Source: Candidatus Eiseniibacteriota bacterium (GTDB lineage: Bacteria > Eisenbacteria > RBG-16-71-46 > JABDJR01). From it: DNA of 64,000 nt. The stretch lies in the NCBI GenBank assembly GCA_963762255.1, contig CAVXKA010000001.1:832001-896000 (forward strand), in the 5' to 3' direction. Both the position numbers and the translations under genes were made by a program. Below, in pieces: positions 1 through 19,413 of this stretch. The notes below the pieces were generated by a model. It saw nothing but the letters and a program-made list of their open reading frames with translations. It ran no database searches and was not told where the DNA came from. Within the stretch, counting starts at the first letter, position 1, and every line of letters begins with the position of its first letter.

Positions 1-648
1 CGGGAGTACTTCCCGGGGCCGGACACCGGCGTTGAGTTCTGCGACCAGATCGGCAATCGCGCCACCTTCCTCCGGCAGGGGGAGTGGCTTCTTGCCCAGG
101 ACTTCGCCGAGGCAATCTTCTTCGCCGAAGACGATTATTTCTACCGGCCCGACACGTTCCTCCCCATGCTGTCCTTCCTGAAGGAGGGACGGGGGATCGA
201 CTTTGTCACCCCCTACGATCACGTGGACTACCACGTCCATCCCCTCCATCGCCGGACGAAGCTTCGCCGCGAACACGAGGGCCGGACGTGGCGGCGGGAG
301 GCGACGACCTGCCTCACCTTTCTCACCACCCGGACCGTCCTGGGGGAGACGTGGCCCCTCTTCCGGGCCTTCGCCGACGGCGCGGCCGACAGCACCATCT
401 GGGCCGCCCTCACCCGGATCCTCTTCTCGCCGGCGACCATCCTTCGCAACGCCCCCGCCGACCGCGAGGTGCCGGTGATCTACGCCGACGCACTGCGCCG
501 CTTCCCACGACAGATCCTGGCCGGGAAGAGCTACGGGCTCTGGTGCCCGGAACCCGGCTTCGCCACCCACCTCGAGTCGACCGGCCTCGCCCCCGGCTTC
601 AGCGTGGAGGAGCTTCTCGGCCTGGGCGGGAGTCGTCCGGAGGCCTGA
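1..648 (+). CDS. Glycosyltransferase-like protein (GT-A/family 2-like), 5' partial
   Basis: Frame 1 is open from base 1. It reads ...IFFAEDDYFY... (acidic metal-binding-like motif) and TPYDHVDY, and stops at TGA 646-648. Codon usage is genome-typical and GC-rich. Confidence 0.55.
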   Translation, partial: REYFPGPDTGVEFCDQIGNRATFLRQGEWLLAQDFAEAIFFAEDDYFYRPDTFLPMLSFLKEGRGIDFVTPYDHVDYHVHPLHRRTKLRREHEGRTWRREATTCLTFLTTRTVLGETWPLFRAFADGAADSTIWAALTRILFSPATILRNAPADREVPVIYADALRRFPRQILAGKSYGLWCPEPGFATHLESTGLAPGFSVEELLGLGGSRPEA

Positions 649-850
649 CCACGGAGCGGCCGATCAAGCGAATCTCGACGCTTCATCCCTGAAATGCCCT
701 ATGCCGGATGGCGTTCCGGGCAGTACAGGCCCTTTCAACGCCGCAGGCCGGGATTCGCTGGATACATGGGCGGGGGTTGCAGGCTATCCCCCGGAACTCA
801 CGGGCCTGGAGTTGGGTCTGCTCCAAGGGTACGGCTCCTGGCGGGTGGGA

Positions 851-902
851 CTATACTGAACAGCAGAGCCTACTACTGGGTTCTGTCCAATTCACGTTCG
901 GC
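851..902 (+). other. Candidate attI-like / first cassette boundary (core GTTCGGC at 896-902)
   Basis: GTTCGGC is the exact reverse complement of the attC1 R'' core GCCGAAC (2112-2118). The upstream DNA lacks a canonical attC L-box geometry. Confidence 0.4.
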
Positions 903-935
903 CCTCTCGGCGTAATCGCCATTCCGGAAAGTTGA

Positions 936-2054
936 GTGAGGGAGATGGAGCTCTCGGCTGTAGATGTCCGATCGATGCGCAGCACGGACCTCTCATGGCA
1001 GACAATTCGGGACGGCGTCGAGGTTTCGTTCCTCCCGCGGCGAATGGTTCAGGAGAGTGGCTTCACTCGTGGGGCTGTGCTCTCCTGGCGATGGGATCGA
1101 GATCTGTTCGAAGGCCGCTCGCGCAATATTGCGCTCGCGCTCCATCATGCAATGCGTACGGAGATTGAGTGGCTGTTCCTGGATCTGGTCACCGTCGATC
1201 AGTCCCTCAGCTCGGAAGAACTGCTCGAGAAAGTCTCGGCGCTCGCGACGCTCTACAAGAAAGTCCCCGTCTTTGTCGCCGGCGACCGTCCCGACGTTCC
1301 GCAGAGCGAATGGGCAAGAACGTTCAGGCGCCCTTGGCTACTCTATGAGGCTAGATCCTACGCGGTGAATCCCGCAGGAGTTACATATCTCGGCTACCGC
1401 CATCGTCTATCGTCCGAGGTCGCTCCGGTCGCGTTCGCTCCCGAGCTCCAAGCCATCAGGGAGGCCGGGTTCGCCATCTACGTTTTCTATGCCATATGGG
1501 GGTACATCGGGATGCAGGACCCCGGAGATTTCAGATTCATCCTGCGGCCCTTCTATTCGCTATTCACCTACCTCCACGAGAGATTGACCAGGGACGATTT
1601 CCTCTTTTCTGTGTTTCTCGTCTGCGCGATCCACGAGCGAACGCAGACAGTCGAAGGTTGGGACGGACCGTTCGACAATGGCTATCGAATAAACTTCCAC
1701 GACATCCGCTTCGAATCGCGGTCCTTCGACCGGTTTTCGATTGGCAAACACGAATCTGCGCGCTTCTATGAGACGCTCCGAACGATCAGCCTAGACGGCC
1801 ATCCCGTCGCCGAATGGAGGAACAAGATGACGAGCAGCTTGGACCGTAACTGGGTCAAAGTTCTGCCCGATGCAGAGCGTTCACGCTTTGATGCGCTCAA
1901 GGTTCCAGACGACGTTCGGCAGGATTACGAAGAGAGAAAGAAGGAACGACTTGCCAGCCTCTTTCTCGACGCGCAGGCGGCCCGGCCACAAGTGCGCCAA
2001 CTAACAGCCTACCTGGATCGCGAAGTGTGGATTCCTTTCGAGCCAGCGGAATGA
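936..2054 (+). CDS. HET (heterokaryon incompatibility)-domain-like protein, gene cassette 1
   Basis: Motifs VLSWRW, WLFLDLVTVDQ, LYKKVPVFV and FRRPWLLYE are in the order of the HET consensus (LSYxW / LWIDxxCIxQ / IYxxA / RxWxxQE). Confidence 0.6.
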   Translation: MREMELSAVDVRSMRSTDLSWQTIRDGVEVSFLPRRMVQESGFTRGAVLSWRWDRDLFEGRSRNIALALHHAMRTEIEWLFLDLVTVDQSLSSEELLEKVSALATLYKKVPVFVAGDRPDVPQSEWARTFRRPWLLYEARSYAVNPAGVTYLGYRHRLSSEVAPVAFAPELQAIREAGFAIYVFYAIWGYIGMQDPGDFRFILRPFYSLFTYLHERLTRDDFLFSVFLVCAIHERTQTVEGWDGPFDNGYRINFHDIRFESRSFDRFSIGKHESARFYETLRTISLDGHPVAEWRNKMTSSLDRNWVKVLPDAERSRFDALKVPDDVRQDYEERKKERLASLFLDAQAARPQVRQLTAYLDREVWIPFEPAE

Positions 2055-2111
2055 AATCAACCGGGGACGTGAGGGCCGAGGTGGCCGAGTTGAGTCACTG
2101 GCCAAGAGAAT

Positions 2112-2197
2112 GCCGAACAAAGCGCTGGAGCCGACGGCATGAATTTCGGTGATTATCGCAGCCTGCAGTGGGCCGCGGCTCAGCGCCAACGTTAGAT
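2112..2197 (+). mobile_element. attC site 1
   Basis: R'' GCCGAAC ... GCGCTGGAGCCG ... CGGCTCAGCGC ... R' GTTAGAT. Imperfect palindrome with an extrahelical base. Confidence 0.9.
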
Positions 2198-3044
2198 GGA
2201 GAAGACTGGAAGGGTGAATCATTCTGTGCAGTCGGGGCCGTGTATCTACTGTAGAACGATCGATGCCCCATTCACCTCTGAGGAACACGTAGTTCCGGAA
2301 TCCCTCGTCGGGGATGAGCTCATTCTGCCCAGAGGCATGGTGTGCGATGTATGCAACTCGGGCGCGCTATCTGACTTGGACAACTGCCTCCAGAACTCGC
2401 CGCTTCTGGGTCTTCACCGCGTACTCTATGGCCCTGGCTTCACCAAGCAGGGCAAGAGACCGATCGCAAATTTCCAGAACGCCTTCCTCTCTCGTCACGG
2501 CGATACTCACATTCAGCTTCGTCCCAAGGACCGGACGGGGGGGATCCGCGACTTTGAGGAACTTCCAGATGGCACCTCACGATTCTCCGTTTCCCTGAAG
2601 AGGCACTTTGACCATGTCAAGTTCAGCAGGGCCCTTCAAAAGATCGGGCTCGGAGCATTCGCCCTCAAGAAGGGGCGGGATCCAGCACTAGATCAACGAT
2701 TCGATACGGCGCGCAGCTTCATACTGCAGGGAGGCACATTCCCAAGTTCGTGGATCCTGGCACTGTCCGGTCCCCCAGCGCCCGGCGGATCGCTCAGGTT
2801 CTGGGATGTCCATCCGCTCGCGCTGTTCGCGTTGGAGGTATCCGGTGTGCGGATGGGATTCCCTCTGGAGCCCACGCCACGATTGGAGGATCTCCCAGTC
2901 GCTGGACTGTTGACCAATGTCGCCTGGTTCCCGATGGATGGGGAGCACGATGACTTTGTAGTCTCGAGCCCATCGGTCGGAGCCGGGAATCAGGACGGCC
3001 CATCTAACGGGCCGCTGCAGCCGCCGCCCGCTCCTGAGGAGTAA
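2196..3044 (+). CDS. HNH endonuclease family protein, gene cassette 2
   Basis: CIYC...SEEHVVPESL...CDVCN zinc/HNH motif. The gene is bounded by attC1 and attC2. Confidence 0.8.
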   Translation: MEKTGRVNHSVQSGPCIYCRTIDAPFTSEEHVVPESLVGDELILPRGMVCDVCNSGALSDLDNCLQNSPLLGLHRVLYGPGFTKQGKRPIANFQNAFLSRHGDTHIQLRPKDRTGGIRDFEELPDGTSRFSVSLKRHFDHVKFSRALQKIGLGAFALKKGRDPALDQRFDTARSFILQGGTFPSSWILALSGPPAPGGSLRFWDVHPLALFALEVSGVRMGFPLEPTPRLEDLPVAGLLTNVAWFPMDGEHDDFVVSSPSVGAGNQDGPSNGPLQPPPAPEE

Positions 3045-3104
3045 GCTGCGGCTTGGAAGGGCGACCGGTTGTCGCGGGCGCGGCTGACCGGCAGCACGTT
3101 AGGC
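3002..3104 (+). mobile_element. attC site 2
   Basis: R'' ATCTAAC is the exact reverse complement of attC1 R' GTTAGAT. Stem CCG-CTGCAGCCGC / GCGGCTGACCGG; R' GTTAGGC. Confidence 0.9.
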
Positions 3105-3142
3105 GAACGAAGATGGCGCAGCGAGTCAACGGCGAGAAACCA

Positions 3143-6100
3143 ATGAACCAAGCTGACCGCGTTTTCATCAGCTACAGCCACCGGGGAAGCGGACCGGGTT
3201 GGAAGGCACGGATGGTGCGGCATCTTGGTGTCTTTGAGCGACATCATCTCCTCGATGTGTGGCAGGACGGCAAAATCCGTGTCAGTTCCTACTGGGACGA
3301 CGACATCACACAGGCCATGAGCAGTGCCCGACTAGCAGTTGTGCTGCTTACCCCTGAGGCTCTCGAATCCCAGTACATCCTTGATAAGGAATTCCCATTC
3401 CTCCGTGAGTGCCAGCAGCGCGACAGGCTCTCGGTGTTCCCGGTGATCTGCGAACCGTGCGACTGGAAAGTCCATGATTGGTTACGAGCGACTCAGGCAC
3501 CGAATGAATCGAATCCCCTCTCACCACTCACCGAAGCCGCGCAAGACCGCATCTTCCGCCAACTCGCCACGGACATCGCGACAGAACTAAGCCGCGTTGC
3601 GTTTGCCGAGTTGCCGAAGTTTGACCAGCCGCCTGCACCCGAACACATCTACCTCGAGAAGTTTCCACTCACCCGTGGCCCCGGGCTGCGTGAGGAGAAA
3701 CTCATTGGCCGGGAACAGGAACTCGCCCTCCTCGACCTCGCCTTCGCCCAGCCGCACACCGCAATCGTCTCTCTCGTCGCCTGGGGCGGCGTGGGCAAGA
3801 CCATGCTCGTCCAGCACTGGCTCCAGCACCTCCAACGCGAGGGCTGGTTAGGCGCGCAGCGCGTCTATGCGTGGAGCTTCTACAGCCAGGGCACCAAGGA
3901 AGACCGGCAAGCCTCCGAAGACACCTTCCTCGCCCACGCCCTCGAATGGTTCGGCGTCCAATGCGAGCCGACCCTCTCGCCGTGGGACAAAGGACGCGTG
4001 CTCGCCGACGCCGTCGCCCGGGAACGCACGCTGCTCGTCCTCGACGGCATCGAGCCGCTCCAGTATCCGCCCGGCCCGATGGGCGGCCAACTCCGCGCCC
4101 CCGGCGTGCAGAGCCTGTTGAAACACCTGACGCGCAACGCGAACTCAGCCGATCAACACGGCCTCTGCCTTGTCACGACGCGCGAACCGCTCGCCGACCT
4201 CGCCGATTTCCAGCGGCGCGAGGCTTCGCCGTGGGGCAGCGTGCTCCGCGTGGACCTTGGCAACCTCACCGCTGAAGCCGGCGCCGCGCTGCTCCATCAC
4301 GCAGGAGCCAGCCGGGCTGGCGCGGCGGAGATCAAACCTGACGACAAGGAACTGATTGCCGCCAGCCGCGAAGTGGACGGTCACGCCCTCACGCTCAATC
4401 TGTTGGGCCGCTTCCTCGCCCGCGCGCACGTCGGCGACATCCGCCGCCGCGACTTGGTGAAATTCGAGGAAGCCGACCGCGAGGAACAAGGCGGCACAAC
4501 CTTCAAGATGCTCGCCGCCTTCGAGAACTGGTTTGCCAACGAAGGCGACATTGAAGCACGAGCCTTAACCATCCTTCGGCTTCTCGCCCTGTTCGACCGT
4601 CCAGCGGATGCGGGCTGCATGGGCGCTTTGCGAAAGTCTCCCATCATCTCCGGGTTGACCGAGCCTCTGTTCACGCTGAGACGGGATTCAAATACCGGTC
4701 AGATGAATGAGAAGCCGCTTTCTGACAAAGCGTGGAATGATGCGATTCATTTTCTTGTCGACTTTGACCTCGTAACCGTGATCGCGTTCGAACGACCTCA
4801 GATTCGAGGCTTCAATATGTTCACAGCACAAGTGATGAGATTCTACGGTCCGAACGCCGGCGTAGTGGAAGAGTTTGACACGGCTTCTGCTGTCCCTGCA
4901 AATGGCAGTTACGTTCTGGAGGCTCACCCTCTCATTCGTGAACACTTTGAGCGGCGTTTACGAATTCAAAGTCCGCACTCTTACAGGAACGGACATTCGC
5001 GCGTGTTCGAGTTCCTCAAGCAATCCGTGCCCTATTGGCCGGAAGGAATCCACAACTTGGTACCGCTCTATCAAGCCGTCTTCCACGGCTGCCGGGCTGG
5101 GGAGTATGACGATGCACGCGAACAGGTGTTCCGGGATCGCATCCTTCGCGCTACTTCCGGGCCGTGCGCGAATTACAGCACTTTTTCGCTCGGGGCTTCC
5201 GACGCGGATCTTTCTGCTCTAGCTTGCTTCTTTGAGATAGCTTGGACACGAGCAAGAGAGGCATTCTCCGATCAGGCAGTAGCTTGGATTCTCAACGAGA
5301 CAGCTTTTCGCCTTCGCGCTATTGGTAGGATAACAGAGGCCGTCGAACCGTTGCGTGCGGCTGTCGAAGCGTCCGCAAGGTTGAGCGACTGGAGTAACGC
5401 GGCGCTTGATGCTGGCAATTTGAGTGAAGTTCACCTTGTCTCGGGAGACGTAGCCGCAGCCGTAATGGCAGCGGATCTCTCCGTCCAATACGCCGACCGA
5501 GCAAAGGACAAACCTCCAACAACGAACGAATCACCGTATTGGCCGATCCACATGCGCGCCCGACTCGCCGCCGCGTTCTTTCAATCCGGGAAGAGTGAAG
5601 ATGCACGGATCTTGTTTGAACAAGCGGAGGAAGGACAGCGGCGTGCTCAGCCCGAATTCCCCGTGCTTTACTCCGTGTCCGGCTTCCGATATTGCGAGTT
5701 CTATCTTCACGGGCCTGAACGCGCTGCTTGGAGCACTACACTTCCAGGTCTCGATTTCGTCTGGGAATCTGCGGATATGTCGTTGACGTGGACAGCTCAG
5801 AAGCGGGCACGCCAAGCACTTCATTGGCTGGAGCAATTCGGTAGCCGTGGCCTCTTGGACATAGCGCTTGACACCTTAACACTAGATCGTTCGGTATTGT
5901 ACCGGACGGTGGTTGATCACTATTCAGCGCCAAACCGCGAAATCGCACTACGCATGCTGCAGGCGGCACTACCTCCGATGCATCATCAGTTCACACTGAT
6001 TGTCGATGCTTTCAGACAGTGTCGCTCGCAAGAATTCATCCCTTTAGCCCTGTTGACGCGCGCTTGGGTGCGGTGTTTGAAAGGAGACACTGCTGGTTCC

Positions 6101-6328
6101 AAAGTCGACTTGGACGAAGCGTGGGACATTGCCGAGCGCGGGCCGATGCGGCTGCACATGGCCGACATCCACCTTTACCGCGCCCGGCTCTTCTTCCGCG
6201 AGAAACCTTACCCGTGGAATTCTTCGCAGGACGACCTCGCCGCCGCCGAGAAACTCGTCAACGACTGCGGGTACCACCGCCGTGACGAAGAACTCGCCGA
6301 CGCCAAGCGCGCCATCCTAGGAGCATGA
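3143..6328 (+). CDS. TIR domain - STAND/NB-ARC-like NTPase - TPR protein (NLR/Avs-like), gene cassette 3
   Basis: TIR motifs VFISYSH...VWQD...SQYILDKE. GREQEL, Walker A WGGVGKT, Walker B LLVLDGIE, VTTR, GHALTL. Helical TPR-like C-terminus. Alternative ATG at 3113. Confidence 0.88.
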   Translation: MNQADRVFISYSHRGSGPGWKARMVRHLGVFERHHLLDVWQDGKIRVSSYWDDDITQAMSSARLAVVLLTPEALESQYILDKEFPFLRECQQRDRLSVFPVICEPCDWKVHDWLRATQAPNESNPLSPLTEAAQDRIFRQLATDIATELSRVAFAELPKFDQPPAPEHIYLEKFPLTRGPGLREEKLIGREQELALLDLAFAQPHTAIVSLVAWGGVGKTMLVQHWLQHLQREGWLGAQRVYAWSFYSQGTKEDRQASEDTFLAHALEWFGVQCEPTLSPWDKGRVLADAVARERTLLVLDGIEPLQYPPGPMGGQLRAPGVQSLLKHLTRNANSADQHGLCLVTTREPLADLADFQRREASPWGSVLRVDLGNLTAEAGAALLHHAGASRAGAAEIKPDDKELIAASREVDGHALTLNLLGRFLARAHVGDIRRRDLVKFEEADREEQGGTTFKMLAAFENWFANEGDIEARALTILRLLALFDRPADAGCMGALRKSPIISGLTEPLFTLRRDSNTGQMNEKPLSDKAWNDAIHFLVDFDLVTVIAFERPQIRGFNMFTAQVMRFYGPNAGVVEEFDTASAVPANGSYVLEAHPLIREHFERRLRIQSPHSYRNGHSRVFEFLKQSVPYWPEGIHNLVPLYQAVFHGCRAGEYDDAREQVFRDRILRATSGPCANYSTFSLGASDADLSALACFFEIAWTRAREAFSDQAVAWILNETAFRLRAIGRITEAVEPLRAAVEASARLSDWSNAALDAGNLSEVHLVSGDVAAAVMAADLSVQYADRAKDKPPTTNESPYWPIHMRARLAAAFFQSGKSEDARILFEQAEEGQRRAQPEFPVLYSVSGFRYCEFYLHGPERAAWSTTLPGLDFVWESADMSLTWTAQKRARQALHWLEQFGSRGLLDIALDTLTLDRSVLYRTVVDHYSAPNREIALRMLQAALPPMHHQFTLIVDAFRQCRSQEFIPLALLTRAWVRCLKGDTAGSKVDLDEAWDIAERGPMRLHMADIHLYRARLFFREKPYPWNSSQDDLAAAEKLVNDCGYHRRDEELADAKRAILGA

Positions 6329-6410
6329 ACCGTCATCAGGGACCTACATCTGGGAATAGGGGGCGCCGTAGATCGAAAGGTCGGCAATGGCTGCGTGTTC
6401 GGGAGCGTGC

Positions 6411-6470
6411 GCCGAACAACAGCATGCAGCGGACGGCGCTGCGCGCCGCAGCTGATGCTGGGCGTCAGGC
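6411..6470 (+). mobile_element. attC site 3 (R' core mutated GTT to GTC)
   Basis: R'' GCCGAAC, CAGCATGCAGC / GCTGATGCTG inverted repeat, R' GTCAGGC. GTCAGGCGTCAC matches the reverse complement of GTGACGCCTAAC (7464-7475) at 11 of 12 positions. Confidence 0.85.
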
Positions 6471-6483
6471 GTCACGAATAGGC

Positions 6484-7431
6484 ATGGTGATGGCTCCATA
6501 TCAGGTGTTTGTCTCTTTCAAGAATCTTGATGGCCATGGAAACCCGACGCCGGACAGCGTGTTGGCGGCGACTGTCAGTGGTTTTCTCGCCAGTCATGGC
6601 CTTCGCGTGTTCTTCAGCAATCAGTCTCTCGAGAAGCTTGGAACAGCCGCCTACAAGAAGGCGATAGACGATGCCCTTGACGCTTGTTCGGTGCTAGTCG
6701 CCGTCGGGACCTCGGCCAATAACCTACAATCGCCGTGGGTCCAGTATGAATGGGACAGCTTCTATAACGACCTTTTGAGCGGCTTGTGGCCTCACAAACG
6801 GCTCTTCTCCTATGTCAAGGACATAGTACCGCGCGACCCGCCTCGTTCGCTGCGACAGAATCAGTCGATCGTTCACATCGACGCGACTGATGCGTCATTG
6901 ACGTCTCTGCTCAACTTCGTTCGCAACGCACTGCCAGAAGACGGTTCAGGTCCCCAGGCAGCTGCTCAAGACTTAACGGACGAGACGATCGCGTCACTAT
7001 CGCTGGTAGAGAGGCTGGCTCTGGGCATCTTGTGCTGGGATACCGAGACACCAGACGTCCTGCACGAGTCGATCCTTCCTCTCTGGCATTCTCTCCCGCG
7101 GCTGGCTCGTCGTGCATATTCGGACTACGCCGACCAAGTCATCGATCAATTCGGCGCGCTGGGGTACGACTTGGTGCCTACGGACGACAGATCCTCGGTG
7201 TTTCGCTTGACCCCGGATCAAGTGGAAGCACTCGCGGGGTACGAACACATGGAGTGGCTTGCCAGGAAAGCGGCTTTCGGGTGGCAGTATGGTGGCTGGA
7301 TGGACAAGCCAAACAAACGCAGCCCGTTTCTGGCTCCCTGGTCCGATCTTCCAGACCGGGCAAAGCAACTTGCTTTGACGGACGTTCGGTCACTTCCGGT
7401 TGCTCTTGCGGCGGCCTGGTTGCGGTTATGA
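6484..7431 (+). CDS. TIR domain - RyR repeat protein, gene cassette 4
   Basis: N-terminal TIR: VFVSFKN...VFFS...AIDDALD...SPWVQYEW. C-terminal RyR repeat: LAGYEHMEW...GWQYG...DKPNKRSPFLAPWSDLP. The longer ORF call from 6325 runs through attC3. Confidence 0.82.
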   Translation: MVMAPYQVFVSFKNLDGHGNPTPDSVLAATVSGFLASHGLRVFFSNQSLEKLGTAAYKKAIDDALDACSVLVAVGTSANNLQSPWVQYEWDSFYNDLLSGLWPHKRLFSYVKDIVPRDPPRSLRQNQSIVHIDATDASLTSLLNFVRNALPEDGSGPQAAAQDLTDETIASLSLVERLALGILCWDTETPDVLHESILPLWHSLPRLARRAYSDYADQVIDQFGALGYDLVPTDDRSSVFRLTPDQVEALAGYEHMEWLARKAAFGWQYGGWMDKPNKRSPFLAPWSDLPDRAKQLALTDVRSLPVALAAAWLRL

Positions 7432-7468
7432 CGGACGTCGGATGGAACGATGTGATCGCAGCTGTGAC

Positions 7469-7537
7469 GCCTAACACGGCATGCACCAGGCGGCGCGCGG
7501 GGTACAGCGCGCCGCTGGTGATGCCGAGCCGTTAGGC
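7469..7537 (+). mobile_element. attC site 4
   Basis: R'' GCCTAAC, CGGCATGCACCAG / CTGGTGATGCCG, R' GTTAGGC. Confidence 0.9.
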
Positions 7538-7567
7538 AGGCAATGGGGCTTGGTTACGGTGGCTGGA

Positions 7568-8035
7568 ATGCGATTCTTTCTAGTCGTCTTGATTGTGGCC
7601 CTGGGGGGATGTGGGTCCGAGTCATCGCCCCAGCAGACTGTGCCGATCCCTGACGTGACAGATGACATGACAGAGGAGTGCGAGTGTCTTGCCGTGGCTC
7701 CCTACTTCTCGGCTTCCTGTGTCGGGATTGCGGGGGCCATGCCGCACATGGTCCCATGCTGGCGCGCGATCGTGGCGCACGCAGACGGGGACGATCACTT
7801 CAGGGAACTTCTCGATCACGCGACGTTGGCTGGGCAGTTGTATGGGCTCGCGGGGTTGTACTTCACGGACCGTAGCGGTTTTGACATGTACGTTCAGCCG
7901 TACCTGGCAAGCACTGACAGCGTCCGCACGTTCGAAGGTTGCATCATCCGTCGTGTCGAGGTACGGGAACTCATGGGGGGGTTCCTGAATGGAACGACGC
8001 CAGCGGCCCTGCAGTCACTGGAGTGTCCATTCTAG
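7568..8035 (+). CDS. Putative lipoprotein, gene cassette 5
   Basis: MRFFLVVLIVALGG|C lipobox-like signal. The gene lies between attC4 and attC5. Confidence 0.7.
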   Translation: MRFFLVVLIVALGGCGSESSPQQTVPIPDVTDDMTEECECLAVAPYFSASCVGIAGAMPHMVPCWRAIVAHADGDDHFRELLDHATLAGQLYGLAGLYFTDRSGFDMYVQPYLASTDSVRTFEGCIIRRVEVRELMGGFLNGTTPAALQSLECPF

Positions 8036-8045
8036 TCAAAGGGCT

Positions 8046-8151
8046 GCCTAACGGGCCGCTGCAGCCGCCGCCCGCTCCCCCCGGGGAGTAGGATAGGGCC
8101 TTGAAGGGTGGCCGGTGGTCCCGGGCGCGGCTGACCGGCAGCACGTAAGGC
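8046..8151 (+). mobile_element. attC site 5 (same family as attC2; R' GTAAGGC)
   Basis: CTGCCTAAC is the reverse complement of GTTAGGCAG at 7531-7539. The body is closely similar to attC2. Confidence 0.85.
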
Positions 8152-8229
8152 AACATCGGGCAGTCGCAGTCGGTCTGTCGGGGCCGGAACCGCTGGAAAT
8201 CGCGGGTCAGACTTCGAAGGGAGGGCCGA

Positions 8230-8655
8230 ATGATCGGAGCACTTGTGGCCAGGAAAGCGCTGGCGGGCGCTTTCGATGCGTTGAACCGGCATGATCTGCC
8301 GAAGTTCATGTCGGCCTGGCGGGACGACGGGGTGTTTGTCTATCCCGGCGAAATACCTGAAAGCGGGACCTTTCAGGGCAAGAGCGCCGTCGCAGGCTGG
8401 TTCGGACATTTCTTCGAGCAGTTTCCAGGGATCAGATTCGAGATTCAAGACCTCTGCGTCCGGAACATCTTCGACCTTTCAGGCACCAACGTCGTCGCTG
8501 TGCACTGGAATATCCAGCTTACCAACCGAGAGGGACGTGTAGGCCAAAACAGCGGCGTGACGGTCGTGAACATCAAATACGGCAAGGTCTTCCTCGTGAA
8601 GGATTTCATCTTTGATCTTGGCGACAACTTCAGGCGCAATTGGAGTGCATCGTAG
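8230..8655 (+). CDS. SnoaL-like / NTF2-family protein, gene cassette 6
   Basis: AFDALNRHDL...WRDDGVFVYPG...GTFQGKSAV pattern; GGAGG upstream. Confidence 0.8.
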   Translation: MIGALVARKALAGAFDALNRHDLPKFMSAWRDDGVFVYPGEIPESGTFQGKSAVAGWFGHFFEQFPGIRFEIQDLCVRNIFDLSGTNVVAVHWNIQLTNREGRVGQNSGVTVVNIKYGKVFLVKDFIFDLGDNFRRNWSAS

Positions 8656-8666
8656 CGAGCGCAGCT

Positions 8667-8763
8667 GCGTGACTGGCGTTTGCAGTCCCCGCCCGCTCAT
8701 TGGGAGTGGAATCGGCCAAAGAGCCGGCCGTCGCGCGCGCGGCCGACCGGCAGCACGTTAGAG
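8667..8763 (+). mobile_element. Degenerate attC site 6 (attC2/5 family)
   Basis: R'' has decayed to GCGTGAC. TGCAG...GCCCGCTC is retained on the left, and GCGCGGCCGACCGGCAGCAC-GTTAGAG on the right. Confidence 0.75.
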
Positions 8764-8770
8764 AGCAGCA

Positions 8771-9484
8771 ATGCCAAGAAGACCTCGACCGATGCGGACA
8801 CGGCGCAGTGAGCACTGGCTCCGTGCTGCCGTGAATAAGCATTCGGAGCCCCTGAATGCACGGGTGCGTACCGTTCTTGGACTTGCGCCCAATGACGCGA
8901 TCCACTGGCTCTCCCCGCTGGCGGATGACGAGTTTGCGGAATACTACGACGAGGCATTTCTCGAGAGGCTCGAGATCAGAGGACTGTCAGTGCCCCTGAG
9001 CGAGTTTTGGCCAGCAGGCGGTCCCAGGTGGGATGGGTTGGCACGCACGAGTTCTGGTGAGCACATCCTGGTTGAGGCCAAGGCATACGTGGAAGAGGCC
9101 GTGGACTACCGCAGCCGAGCCGGGGAATCCTCTCTGATCAAGATCCGCTACGCCTTGGGATTGGCGAAGGAGGCGTTCCGCGCATCGGCCGAAGGATCGT
9201 GGGAGCGGCCCTTCTACCAGTACGCCAACCGTTTGGCGCATCTCCACTTCTTGCGGGGTCTGAATGGAGTGAAGGCGCGTCTTCTCTTCTTGTATTTCGC
9301 CGATGCACCAGATGTTCCCCGGCCCTGTAGCGAGGACCAGTGGATTGGTGCAATCCGGCTGATCAACAAGGTGCTTGGGCTGGGTGAACACCCATACCAA
9401 CCGCATGTTGGACACCTAATATGGAGCGTCCAGGATCTGCTCTCAGACCAGTCGTTACAGCCGCCGCCCGCGCCTGGGGAGTAG
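8771..9484 (+). CDS. Hypothetical protein with PD-(D/E)xK nuclease-like motif, gene cassette 7
   Basis: PRWDGLA...ILVEAKA catalytic-like motif and YQYANRLAHL. The stop codon lies inside the following attC. Confidence 0.6.
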   Translation: MPRRPRPMRTRRSEHWLRAAVNKHSEPLNARVRTVLGLAPNDAIHWLSPLADDEFAEYYDEAFLERLEIRGLSVPLSEFWPAGGPRWDGLARTSSGEHILVEAKAYVEEAVDYRSRAGESSLIKIRYALGLAKEAFRASAEGSWERPFYQYANRLAHLHFLRGLNGVKARLLFLYFADAPDVPRPCSEDQWIGAIRLINKVLGLGEHPYQPHVGHLIWSVQDLLSDQSLQPPPAPGE

Positions 9485-9500
9485 GATCCGCGCTTGAAGG
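9442..9500 (+). mobile_element. Left half of attC site 7 (attC2/5 family)
   Basis: CTGCTCTCAGAC (9437-9448) matches the reverse complement of GTTAGAGAGCAG (8757-8768) at 10 of 12 positions. It continues CAGCCGCCGCCCGC...GGGGAGTAGGAT...TTGAAGG as in attC5, then stops. Confidence 0.75.
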
Positions 9501-9501
9501 C

Positions 9502-10188
9502 ATGACATCGGAGAGCGCAATGAGGCACTGTGGACCGTGGATAGCAGCTCCTGTGATCTGGTTAGCCCTTTCCGGCCATGCGCCCCCGGTTCTTGGCGGG
9601 GAGTGCACTGAAGGGGAGGACCACTATCTTACGGACATTGAGATCCACGGATCGCAAGCGCACGACGAGAGCTTCCACTGCCTACAATGGACGGCGGCTG
9701 ACTGGAGCAAGTGGGCCGGCCCGATCGCTGGCTCCATGTTCGAGGAGTGCCGACGATCGCCGATTCGTGAACGATTGACCGCGGCATGCACACCGCTGCT
9801 CGCCGACACCGCGCGGGTGACCCTCGAGTGGCGGATCCCTCGGTACCGAGCAGCCGTGTTGCTCGCTTCGTACGGCATACCTCGCGTTGCCGACCAGGAT
9901 ATCTTTGGGATCATCACCGAGGAGATGCGAGGCCGGGGCTCCTTGGGCACGGCGGACTACATGGCGCTGGCGGCCCTTCGAGACCCAAGGACGGTGCAGT
10001 TCCTGGCCGGAGAATTCGACTCTGTCGCCTCGGTGCGTGCCCCGGATCGGCTGGAGGTGATCCGGGACATTCTGAACTGCCTCTACCATGTTCCGGGAGA
10101 TTCAGCGGTCGCTCTTGCGAAGACGATCAGTGAGAGGGAGCGCGATCCCGCGATCAAGGAGAGGGCGGAGAGGGTCATTCATCGGTAG
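9502..10188 (+). CDS. Secreted hypothetical protein with HEAT-like C-terminal helices
   Basis: Hydrophobic N-terminus after ATG 9502/9520; ALAALRDPRTVQFL...IKERAERVI HEAT-like repeats. Confidence 0.6.
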   Translation: MTSESAMRHCGPWIAAPVIWLALSGHAPPVLGGECTEGEDHYLTDIEIHGSQAHDESFHCLQWTAADWSKWAGPIAGSMFEECRRSPIRERLTAACTPLLADTARVTLEWRIPRYRAAVLLASYGIPRVADQDIFGIITEEMRGRGSLGTADYMALAALRDPRTVQFLAGEFDSVASVRAPDRLEVIRDILNCLYHVPGDSAVALAKTISERERDPAIKERAERVIHR

Positions 10189-10189
10189 A

Positions 10190-10212
10190 ACTGGCCGTCG
10201 CGGGCGCGGCTG
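10190..10212 (+). mobile_element. Remnant resembling the right half of an attC2/5-family site
   Basis: ACTGGCCGTCGCGGGCGCGGCTG compared with attC2 ACCGGTTGTCGCGGGCGCGGCTG; no intact R' follows. Confidence 0.55.
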
Positions 10213-10237
10213 GGTGACGGAGCGACAAGTACACCCT

Positions 10238-10855
10238 ATGCGACGTTGGTCAATCCTCGTAGCCGGCGTTTCCCAGATCGCCGTGGGCCTGTCTCAGGTG
10301 GCGGCCTTCCCGGCGATCGATTGCTTCCCGGTTGGGCCGTACGGCTTGTCTCAACAGGACTCCAGCGTTGTGTCCGGCGCGTTGAGCCTGGATGGGTGGA
10401 GCCGGATCTGTCTCCAGGTGCGAGATCCCGGCTGGGACGCGACTGATTGCGAATACGTGTACCCCACGGACGTGTTCCGCCTGGCTGATTGTCGGGAGGA
10501 CACTCTTCGCTTGGCTGGCTGCGCCGGCGACTTCGACGGTGACGGGCAGCGGGATGTTGCGCTGCTTGTCAAGCGGATCGGAGACGGTAGCGTTCGAGCC
10601 TTCGTCCGCTTGGCCAAGGGCGATGGTTTGCACACCGTCCAATTGCCGCCGATCATGGACGAGTACGGTTTCGAAAGTGACCCGACGATCCCTCCGGGGC
10701 CCTTCTGCATTCGCAAGCCAGTCTCTGGTACGGTCCATTTCCAAAGCGAATATGGGGATTACACGTACTCGCCGAAGGGAGATCTCTTGGTTCTGGGCTG
10801 GGAGACGTATGCATGGGGCGACACGGGCTTTGTGGTCGTCCACACGGCGGACTGA
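10238..10855 (+). CDS. Secreted hypothetical protein with one FG-GAP/VCBS-like Ca-binding motif
   Basis: Signal-like MRRWSILVAG...; GDFDGDGQRDVALL. Confidence 0.6.
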   Translation: MRRWSILVAGVSQIAVGLSQVAAFPAIDCFPVGPYGLSQQDSSVVSGALSLDGWSRICLQVRDPGWDATDCEYVYPTDVFRLADCREDTLRLAGCAGDFDGDGQRDVALLVKRIGDGSVRAFVRLAKGDGLHTVQLPPIMDEYGFESDPTIPPGPFCIRKPVSGTVHFQSEYGDYTYSPKGDLLVLGWETYAWGDTGFVVVHTAD

Positions 10856-10938
10856 GTCGATGGCGTGCCACGCGCCATCGGGCGGCTTGCGCCCGGTGCT
10901 ATAGTCGAATCTACCCCATGCCTCTTCGGAGGTCGCTG

Positions 10939-11691
10939 ATGACATGTCCATGTTGCTCGTACGCGATTCGACTGCTCGTCACTTCGCTGGCTCTGATCGG
11001 GGTATCGAGCGTTTCGGCGTGGGCCGGGACCAATCCCAACGCGGTCTTCGCGCTCCACGCCAAGGCCCACACGACCAAGCCCGTGTCCATATGCACGACG
11101 CGGAGCCCGAATAGCGGCACCCCGATCCCGTGCACCAGCTACGTCACCCAATGGCCTCTCGCCACAAGCGCGGATGTCTACCTCGTGGTAGCGCGCGGCG
11201 ATTCGGTGACCGGTATCGTCGGCGCTTCCTGCGGGGTCCAGTACAACCAGGCAGTCGGCATGGGCGTCGATATGCACGGTTGGACGCTGTGCGCCGACTT
11301 GGAGTCCATCAGCGCCGGCCCCAACGGCGGATGGCCGAACTCCGGCGGCGGCAACCGCATGACCTGGGTGGCGTCGACGAACTGCCAGCGGACGGTGGCT
11401 GGCGACCAGGGCGTGCACGCGGTGGCGGGTGCGTTCTACGTCTATGCCTATGGCACGGATGTCCTCAACCTCACGGAAAACAAGAACGTGGCGTTTCCCG
11501 AACTGGCCGTGGCCAACTGCTCCGGCCATACGGACCATCTCCCTTGGGCTCGGGTCGCGTTCGTGACATTCTCGGCGGGCGGTGTACTCGAGGGCTGCAA
11601 TCCCTGCACAGAGCCCAACGCGTCCTGTGAACGACCTGTGCCTGCGCTGCCCACCACCTGGAGCAATCTGAAGCAGAGGTTCGGGGGGTAG
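10939..11691 (+). CDS. Secreted Cys-rich protein with C-terminal TWxxLK tail
   Basis: GGAGG RBS at 10928; signal peptide ending AWA; C-terminus PTTWSNLKQRFGG. Confidence 0.8.
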   Translation: MTCPCCSYAIRLLVTSLALIGVSSVSAWAGTNPNAVFALHAKAHTTKPVSICTTRSPNSGTPIPCTSYVTQWPLATSADVYLVVARGDSVTGIVGASCGVQYNQAVGMGVDMHGWTLCADLESISAGPNGGWPNSGGGNRMTWVASTNCQRTVAGDQGVHAVAGAFYVYAYGTDVLNLTENKNVAFPELAVANCSGHTDHLPWARVAFVTFSAGGVLEGCNPCTEPNASCERPVPALPTTWSNLKQRFGG

Positions 11692-11859
11692 GCCGCGCAA
11701 GGACCGAGATGATCACCGGTGGTGGGGTTCGTGACTCTGGCGAGGATGGTAAGCTCACCGCACAATCCGTCTCGCGGAGCGCCTCAATTCACATAGGGCA
11801 GGGCCAGCGCCCGTCGTAACCGGGGGTCGTCATTACTCGCAACGCGCGATAAGTCTCGG

Positions 11860-18290: not shown

Positions 18291-19337
18291 TTATGGCGTG
18301 ATAGCGACCTTGAGTACGCCGTCACGTTGGTTCACGAACAGGTCGTAGGCTTCTTCAATCTTTGCGAGCGGAAACCGGTGGGTAACCAGGGGCCGCAGGT
18401 CTGCTCGTTCGGCGGCCAGGACGTTCAACAGTCGGCGCATCCGCTCCTTCCCTCCCGGGCAAAGAGTCGTCACGACCGTGTGGTCGCCGAGCCCTGCCGC
18501 GAAGGCGTCCAGCGGTAGCGTGAGCTTGCCAGAGTAGACACCCAAACTCGAGAGCACGCCACCTGGCCGCAGGACGCGCAGACAGTTCTCGAACGTCGCT
18601 TGCGTGCCCAGCGCCTCGATCGCAACGTCCACCCCGCGCTGGCCGGTAGCCTCCAGGATCGCCTGAACCGGATCGCGCTCCTGGTAGTTGATGATGACGT
18701 CGGCACCCAGTTGGCGAGACATGGCGAGCCGCTCCGGCACCGAATCGACGCTGAAGATCCGGGTCGCGCCCATGAGCTTCGCGCCGACCGTTGCACAGAG
18801 CCCGATCGGGCCCTGCGCGAATACCGCGACGGTGTCCCCGATTCGGATCTGACCACTCTCCGCACCGCCGAAGCCTGTGCTCATGATGTCGGGGCACATG
18901 AGCACCTGCTCGTCGGTCAAGTGATCGGGGATCGGCTCCATGTTGGCCGTGGCCTCGGGAATCAGTACATACTCGGCCTGGCAACCATCAATGGAGTTGC
19001 CGAGCCGCCAGCCACCCATCGCCTTGCCGCCGCACTGGGCCTGTTTCCCGTCGAGGCATGCGTGGCACTGCCCGCAAGGAGTAATTGCGCCGGCGATCAC
19101 ACGCTGGCCGATCTCATAGCCCGTGACCGCCTCCCCGAGTTCCTCGATGATACCCACCGGCTCATGACCTACGGTAAGCCCTCGAGCGACTGGATACTCA
19201 CCCTTAAGAATGTGCACGTCGGTACCGCAGATCGTGGTGGTCGTCACCCGCAGCAGTGCGTCGCGCGGCCCCACCTCGGGAACAGCCTTGTCCACCAAGA
19301 CAATGCGGCCGGCCTCAGCAAAAACAGCCGCCTTCAT
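18291..19337 (-). CDS. Zn-dependent alcohol dehydrogenase
   Basis: ICGTD, GHEPVG, CGQCHAC...C, QGPIG. Alternative start at 19382. Confidence 0.93.
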   Translation of the reverse strand: MKAAVFAEAGRIVLVDKAVPEVGPRDALLRVTTTTICGTDVHILKGEYPVARGLTVGHEPVGIIEELGEAVTGYEIGQRVIAGAITPCGQCHACLDGKQAQCGGKAMGGWRLGNSIDGCQAEYVLIPEATANMEPIPDHLTDEQVLMCPDIMSTGFGGAESGQIRIGDTVAVFAQGPIGLCATVGAKLMGATRIFSVDSVPERLAMSRQLGADVIINYQERDPVQAILEATGQRGVDVAIEALGTQATFENCLRVLRPGGVLSSLGVYSGKLTLPLDAFAAGLGDHTVVTTLCPGGKERMRRLLNVLAAERADLRPLVTHRFPLAKIEEAYDLFVNQRDGVLKVAITP

Positions 19338-19413
19338 CGTGCGGCTACGCCGCCCTGATTGCATACGATTGAGGTGCGTCATTGTTCGCCTCGTGTCAGA
19401 AATGTCTGTCCGC

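Follow-up and report, generated by a model that had tools for sequence, protein, structure and literature searches.

The DNA analyzed here, the window, is a 64,000-nucleotide (nt) stretch of a Candidatus Eiseniibacteriota genome (G000:C1:832001-896000; the source genome, G000, comprises 4.1 Mb in 3 contigs and is 93.6% complete). It carries a run of same-strand genes spaced by an imperfect palindrome of ~103 nt with the anatomy of an integron attC site. From the outer left, sites of this family comprise an R'' box ending AAC, a spacer and a 14-nt GC-rich L'' box. A central loop (variable terminal structure, VTS) of ~40 nt is followed by a 13-nt L' box, which pairs with L'' save for one unpaired C, and then by a spacer and, on the outer right, an R' box starting GTT. 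At one point in the window an intact gene stands between the left half and the right half of such a site (Table 1). An earlier note, made from the sequence alone, had described this arrangement and offered two explanations for it: precise insertion of an open reading frame (ORF) into an attC, possibly an intermediate of cassette genesis, or complementary deletions in two separate attC sites.

The half-sites were delimited with an attC profile of 120 positions, built initially on three window copies, rebuilt on 23 full ones and searched with nhmmer; R'' occupies profile positions 12-17, L'' 27-40, the loop 41-81, L' 82-94 and R' 106-112. The left half-site matches up to TTGAAGG, where the note had ended its own match (9442-9500), and 9453-9500 groups with 3013-3060 and 8060-8107 as one repeat family in a repeat search of the window. 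Its R'' box is degenerate, reading TCAGAC where CTAAC is expected. The same repeat search placed 10190-10212 in register with 3064-3086 and 8111-8133. With up to 3 mismatches allowed, the right-half 23-mer has no window match apart from itself and 3064 (0 expected, 100 shuffles). As a lone profile match genome-wide the right half is weak (10177-10212, E 2.2). The genome contains 27 matches to the consensus 22-mer (profile 73-94) at the same tolerance of 3 mismatches, all of them within the five attC arrays; the one at 10191 differs from it at 2 positions. Because this 22-mer occurs in attC arrays only (27/27), the right half is a true attC part, as the note had proposed for the letters following the TAG at 10188.

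The two halves abut in the profile, the left ending at 69 and the right starting at 73, with ~3 positions absent between them. L'' and L' agree with the family consensus at every position (27/27 nt) and form 13 pairs with one unpaired C. Joining and aligning the halves, a check suggested with the original observation, rebuilds the site save for ~3 nt, and the L''/L' stem refolds with a single unpaired base as in intact copies.

The complementary parts of each half were then sought in the adjoining DNA. No above-chance match was found to the right-arm consensus in 9501-9640 (null fraction 0.89), to the left-arm consensus in 10050-10189, the end of the gene (null fraction 0.49), or to the consensus spacer plus R' in 10213-10290, the 78 nt after L' (null fraction 0.86). 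Divergence alone thus does not account for the lost arms and R' box, which are absent; the terminal R' is missing as the note had said. Pairing between the outer arms is at chance, with duplex energies compared against random genome segments giving p values of 0.08 and 0.35. Two candidate features were dropped on these grounds: apparent compensatory changes between the outer arms, seen by eye as six consecutive pairs, and an R'-like GTTGGTC at 10245-10251, which depends on the same non-significant pairing.

Table 1. Features of the split attC locus, followed by other features of the window array. Positions are those of the window; attC2, attC5 and attC6 are labels from the earlier note.
Feature	Position	Strand	Description and basis
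Left half-site	9438..9500	+	Profile 7-69 of 120, E 8.1e-9; match ends at TTGAAGG
Left half-site parts	R'' 9442-9448 (degenerate), spacer 9449-9457, L'' 9458-9471, loop start 9472-9500	+	L'' identical to consensus; profile and repeat search
Leader	9501..9519	+	19 nt, GGAG at 9510-9513; length matches usual R'-to-next-start distance (median 18.5 nt, n=22)
Intact gene	9520..10188	+	222 amino acids (aa), signal peptide, all-alpha HEAT-like repeat; homologue alignment, structure model
Right half-site	10191..10212	+	Profile 73-94; loop end 10191-10199, L' 10200-10212 (identical to consensus)
Stretch where spacer and R' are expected	10213..10237	+	25 nt; no recognisable R' (p 0.86)
Upstream cassette gene	8771..9484	+	237 aa; family of 1284 proteins
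Next gene	10238..10855	+	205 aa, signal peptide, weak FG-GAP-like match; no family attC after it
attI-like array head	860..905	+	19-mer ending CACGTT, shared with site just after intI remnant
Full family attC (attC2)	3000..3108	+	nhmmer E 1e-28, profile 9-116; imperfect hairpin, bottom strand -29.8 kcal/mol
attC of other type	7469..7537	+	69 nt, closes TIR-NACHT + TIR-RyR cassette; R''/R' scan, fold -31.5 kcal/mol; Pfam for cassette genes
Full family attC (attC5)	8040..8155	+	nhmmer E 5.9e-28; R' = GTAAGGC
Full, more diverged family attC (attC6)	8662..8766	+	nhmmer E 7.9e-19, profile 6-115

The ORF between the half-sites ends at the TAG at 10188, leaving 2 nt before the right half-site. The note had placed its start at 9502, an ATG that is also in frame, but translation likely begins at ATG 9520. 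This start is favoured by the GGAG upstream, by the database protein P0001, which is 222 aa long, and by the N-termini of homologues, which align there. A search of 5.8 billion proteins showed the product to belong to a rare family of 8 proteins including itself, with invariant Cys, a WAGPIA motif and conservation from the signal peptide to the final residue. The extent of this conservation indicates that the gene is complete at both ends. The predicted structure (predicted local distance difference test, pLDDT, 84) is all-helical and has no PDB match at E<=0.001, the nearest structures being HEAT-like alphaRep proteins; no Pfam or PHROG family was assigned. The product is thus predicted to be a secreted, HEAT-like helical-repeat protein. 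Its gene is single-copy in the genome. The insert carries no detectable transposase, in agreement with the note, nor a reverse transcriptase or intron RNA, with no Pfam or PHROG match and no Rfam match in 7000-11500.

The note had also remarked on the near absence of flanking DNA around the ORF. The segment is indeed compact, with a 19-nt leader and 2 nt after the stop, but this is ordinary for cassettes of this genome. In intact cassettes the stop ends a median of 11 nt before R'' (n=23 full sites) and the next start lies a median of 18.5 nt after R' (n=22). As intact cassettes are this compact, the gene's missing flanking DNA needs no special explanation.

The upstream gene (8771-9484) runs into the left half-site: the attC left arm supplies the last ~14 codons, and the reading frame terminates at a TAG inside the loop. 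The conserved part of its 1284-protein family ends near LIWSV..LS, just before the left arm, and the tails vary; the left half-site is therefore this gene's own attC. Several tails in the family read SN where an attC R'' would start, suggesting that the family is often cassette-borne, and one source name in it begins 'Restriction endo'. Across the genome, 6/23 ORFs preceding full sites run into the family attC, and L'' gives at least two of these a similar proline-rich tail. All three frames are stopped within the left half of the family attC, with TAA in R'' and TAG and TGA in the loop (e.g. 3000-3108 and 8040-8155). Together with the next gene (10238-10855), the ORFs 8771-9484 and 9520-10188 form a series of three same-strand genes with gaps of 35 and 49 nt, and both of the latter ORFs are complete relative to their families. 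No promoter-like or terminator-like sites were found in 8100-11000, which fits a predicted read-through expression of fused cassettes.

This genome has no intact integron integrase. None scored above the TIGR02249 cut-off anywhere in the 93.6% complete assembly, and neither TIGR02249 nor PF00589 matched in the window's part of the contig. The sole intI is a remnant (G000:C1:1537713-1538116; L001 1271-1875) just upstream of, and on the same strand as, the main array of 21 sites; it retains TIGR02249 positions 86-130 and 248-306 in two frames, without 131-247. The attI-like 19-mer at the head of the window array has three copies in the genome, at window position 880, at C1:1538318 and at C2:788527 (3 mismatches). 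Its recurrence just after the intI remnant suggests that the window array may represent a second integron whose integrase is gone; no integrase homology was found upstream of the attI-like head in the window. With three full family attC sites and one of another type in 3000-8766, and no nearby intI, the array corresponds to a CALIN (cluster of attC sites lacking integron integrase), as defined, with proposed origins, in passages of PMC4889954.

The attC family occupies five places in the genome: the main array (C1:1538871-1560042, 21 matches), the window array, C1:486-492 kb, C1:1414-1416 kb and C2:1157 kb. Truncation is concentrated outside the main array. With the 23-copy profile, 19/21 matches in the main array are full-length, against 4/16 elsewhere, so that 12/16 matches outside the main array are truncated. 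At none of the 11 truncated sites tested, both half-sites described here included, was a trace of the lost part detected within 100 nt (null fractions >=0.30). Right-truncated sites end at profile positions 69, 72, 74, 79, 96 and 100, four of the six falling at 69-79, and left-truncated sites start at 27, 31, 48, 59 and 73. The order found in the window, a right-truncated site followed by a left-truncated one, recurs in two further pairs in the C1:486-492 kb array (C1:492492 then 490508, and C1:489017 then 488207). At the right-truncated site C1:492492 an ORF starts 21 nt on, compared to 19 nt at the window locus. Four of the five left-truncated sites adjoin the stop of the preceding long ORF (at -14, -6, +8 and -1 nt). 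The gene ahead of one of these four, C1:1414730, keeps a degenerate but two-armed attC upstream, indicating that loss of a left arm can happen alone. Perfect L boxes are also present in other truncated sites. In the main array itself, one site (C1:1549028-1549125) combines family outer boxes and spacers with very different inner arms and loop; it is possibly a hybrid, or else a second attC type that has these ends in common with the family.

Homologues of the 222-aa gene were next considered at four distinct loci (L017, L018, L015 and the identical L010/L012/L013/L014/L019). At L017, on a contig of an Anaerolineae metagenome-assembled genome, the homologue (52% identity) is an ordinary cassette between two near-identical full attC sites of 131 nt (fold z -7.7 and -5.8). 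The note had asked for the gene with intact attC flanks in related genomes; L017 provides full sites on both sides, but only in a distant relative. L018 has an acceptable attC-like site upstream only, and was rejected as a normal cassette since its downstream candidate does not fold (z +0.63). No attC sites were found at L015 or at the identical loci. A protein search of 61 genomes, G000 included, returned outside G000 only a 45% homologue in G043, which lies without recognisable attC sites, and one weak 27% match. Window 8160-11700 compared against 8 genomes of the family yielded only attC copies and a multi-copy gene, with no counterpart of 8771-10855, and the left flank (window 1-3000) had no match in 5 relatives. 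The locus was thus found in no family relative within the GTDB sample.

Closer relatives are represented by short pieces only, namely metagenome contigs from three studies aligned at >=80% likeness (~90-96% nt identity), and by the protein P0002 (81% identity), encoded on a contig of 1116 nt. The 15-residue N-terminal extension of P0002 is compatible, ungapped, with up to 31/45 nt of 9475-9519, a score reached by 0/5000 random 45-mers of the window and by 0.4% of shuffled peptides. A 333-nt contig covers 9596-9773 plus 30 nt of the left arm (9458-9487), and nine more letters before 9458 read like the consensus spacer. The distance from this left arm to the equivalent of 9596 is ~116 nt, versus 108 nt in the window, whereas a full attC plus leader needs ~138 nt or more. 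Two 151-nt contigs track the window across the gene end and the right half, one as far as 10212 and the other as far as 10210, and then diverge from it. These contigs offer support and not proof, because their sides of 21-30 nt fall below the 31-nt bridging rule and the left arm is a repeat. On these alignments, the close relatives (81% aa; ~90-96% nt) appear to share both junctions.

The composite was also assessed as a recombination site. Paired R''/R' boxes (RYYYAAC ... GTTRRRY) are lacking, while the inner L''/L' boxes with an extrahelical base are in place. On the bottom strand of 9430-10240 the L'':L' stem has a probability of 0.01, and the span from 9438 to 10212 is 775 nt, compared with the 57-141 bp given for natural attC sites in a passage of PMC5371416. 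On the top strand of the same segment, as DNA or RNA, the long-range L'':L' stem reaches 0.48-0.98 per pair (~0.97 for most), although this stem enclosing the gene is an equilibrium prediction only. Lacking R boxes, an intact integrase (IntI) in the genome and a bottom-strand stem, the site is dead for recombination here, which upholds the note's view that it is non-functional as it stands.

We favour reading the locus as two adjacent one-armed attC remnants that mark fused cassettes in a decaying array without integrase, a reading to which we give an even chance of being right. The window region would then be the far end of such an array. The ORFs 8771-9484 and 9520-10188 would once have been ordinary adjacent cassettes, each followed by its own ~103-nt family attC, and two separate deletions would have struck these two separate sites. 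In the first attC the deletion would have taken the right arm, starting in the loop and including L' and R'; in the second it would have taken the left arm, with R'', L'' and part of the loop, and the R' end would have gone later. Each deletion would take one arm of a hairpin-forming palindrome, the type of deletion to which such repeats are prone, and hairpin instability would have driven the losses. Unstable palindromes are expected to lose one arm once selection on the site ends. The outcome would be fused cassettes with three same-strand genes, and the remnants would mimic one attC split by a gene because the surviving arms of the two sites happen to end near the same loop position.

Several results support the two-remnant reading: no working IntI, frequent one-armed sites, lone arm losses, compact cassettes, the normal cassette at L017 and a precedent for fused cassettes. 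The note's proposal of two complementary deletions is thus favoured by the 12/16 truncated sites outside the main array and by the 11/11 truncated sites that left no remnant of the missing part, although the single-site alternative retains an appreciable, if smaller, share of our belief. A number of observations weigh on the other side. The halves are complementary to within ~3 profile positions (69|73), while none of 20 hand-paired combinations of other ends (72, 74, 79, 96, 100) and starts (27, 31, 48, 59) falls within 5 positions. The reading also requires two independent deletions, both before the divergence of every close relative found, and no relative with a full family-type attC beside the gene was seen among the few short contigs. 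The perfect L''/L' boxes beside unrecognisable outer boxes look like sharp breakpoints rather than slow decay. The deletion mechanism is also one that we infer.

In the rival reading, a cassette body of ~690 nt would have entered the loop of a single attC belonging to the 8771-9484 cassette; the composite would then have been inherited, and the outer R boxes would have decayed later in this genome. We regard this as a tentative alternative, on the doubtful side. The inserted segment is exactly a cassette body (the 19-nt leader with its ribosome-binding site, the gene and 2 nt), joining the abutting halves refolds the stem, the inner boxes are perfect where the outer ones are unrecognisable, and the left arm is placed where the upstream gene family usually meets R''. 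The left junction is seemingly common to relatives, as judged from the P0002 extension (31/45 nt) and the 333-nt contig, and two contigs run from the gene end into the right half, leaving the window at 10210-10212. To our knowledge, however, no process inserts a gene-only segment into an attC loop, and the insert lacks any transposase, reverse transcriptase or intron RNA that might supply a mechanism. The chance-level pairing of the outer arms (p 0.08 and 0.35) leaves nothing to connect the two outer flanks as parts of one site, the genome commonly shows one-armed sites without such an insertion, the gene family occurs as a normal cassette at L017, and the contig evidence is short, with sides below the bridging rule. 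The stronger claim, that a whole promoterless gene in the loop of a single attC has been inherited while the protein diverged by at least 19%, would mean that an unknown process places cassette bodies at attC hairpin tips, and we consider it unlikely. The note's suggestion of a cassette-genesis intermediate is in this sense weakened by the normal cassette at L017 and kept alive by the ~3-position complementarity and the split shared among relatives.

Two further possibilities were weighed against the same data. The composite could still be functional, either for recombination, as a site with a long loop in those relatives that retain R boxes, or through a 13-bp GC stem closing the gene in its mRNA. 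The consensus L''/L' boxes, the top-strand stem probabilities and the consensus-like left spacer of one relative (the letters before 9458) would suit this. We nevertheless judge it very improbable, given the bottom-strand stem probability of 0.01, the absence of R boxes here and of IntI in the genome, a span beyond the natural lengths stated in PMC5371416, the perfect L boxes in other truncated sites, and folding that is an equilibrium prediction only. The junctions might instead be an assembly artefact at a repeated element; in its favour, no public sequencing run contained at least half of the sampled words from the stretch, and no RNA run covered it. The likelihood of this is close to negligible in our estimation. 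Repeat collapse or mis-joining gives whole chimeric sites and not half-sites around a unique intact gene, and the assembly is of 4.1 Mb in only 3 contigs. Moreover, contigs of three other studies enter the right half from the gene or carry the left arm at the same distance, and the upstream translation of P0002 fits the same junction.

Fused cassettes of the kind favoured here have been described in class 1 integrons, where partial attC loss permanently links ORFs (passages of PMC4670013). As in the cases covered there, complete same-strand ORFs are linked in the window by truncated attC sites that are no longer integrase substrates: no right arm follows 9500 and no left arm precedes 10191. 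In contrast to those cases, two successive sites are cut on opposite sides, so that the remnants mimic one split site, and they lie in a chromosomal array that lacks an integrase and belongs to an environmental bacterium, with co-transcription predicted at most. The array also resembles the CALIN and sedentary chromosomal integrons treated in PMC4889954, with at least two attC sites, no nearby intI, homogeneous attC sites and a main array elsewhere. Unlike the CALIN of those passages, most off-array sites here are one-armed, a state that the passages do not describe. It also differs from a CALIN in keeping an attI-like head.

Foreign DNA inside attC sites has known sources. Group IIC-attC introns, which comprise a reverse transcriptase and an intron RNA, and IS1111-attC elements, which carry a DEDD transposase, insert into attC sites. 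The locus is like these in having foreign DNA inside an attC, and unlike them in that the insert is a promoterless gene with a ribosome-binding site and no such protein or RNA. Synthetic attC sites have been embedded in coding sequence, the site being tolerant of sequence content (PMC7439510). Both arrangements let attC and coding sequence share DNA, although in those constructs the site lies in a gene, whereas here the gene would lie in the site, within a loop of ~720 nt versus 57-141 bp for entire natural sites. Full-text word searches, with subscription journals outside their coverage, returned no paper on a gene inside an attC loop.

Cassette genesis is called 'largely unknown' in a passage of PMC5371416. 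Were the gene truly housed in an attC loop, it would provide a concrete, testable intermediate for how cassettes are made, and the process could let a gene change its attC, or first gain one, on entering a host with its own attC family. If the locus instead represents two remnants, as we think more likely, it would show how an array decays after the death of its integrase: one hairpin arm is lost, frequently from the loop towards the outer end, and the cassettes end up fused in operon-like runs. One-armed remnants can mimic a split site, and such remnants are missed by attC finders that look for whole sites.

The cassettes of the window array include an HNH protein, a TIR-NACHT + TIR-RyR pair, a SnoaL protein and the 8771-9484 gene. 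The pair forms a 4.4-kb two-gene cassette (3107-7537) encoding a TIR + NACHT/AAA ATPase (~1090 aa) and a TIR + RyR-domain protein (368 aa), and looks like an anti-phage defence cassette. Beyond the next gene, 11007-11616 belongs to a gene that occurs in many diverged copies (66-81% nt identity), both in G000 and in same-family relatives; no Pfam family was found for an ORF on either strand. When one attC was used to search the DNA of 151 genomes across the class, G054 among them, with only 5 candidates scored per genome and thus at a depth that cannot list arrays, the attC family proved essentially confined to G000 and G004, a genome of another genus. The one full family attC of G004, in the C1:744787-750846 region, lies 5 kb from an orthologue (79% nt identity) of the window's zinc-dependent alcohol dehydrogenase gene (18291-19382). 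This proximity suggests that the chromosomal site of the array may be old.

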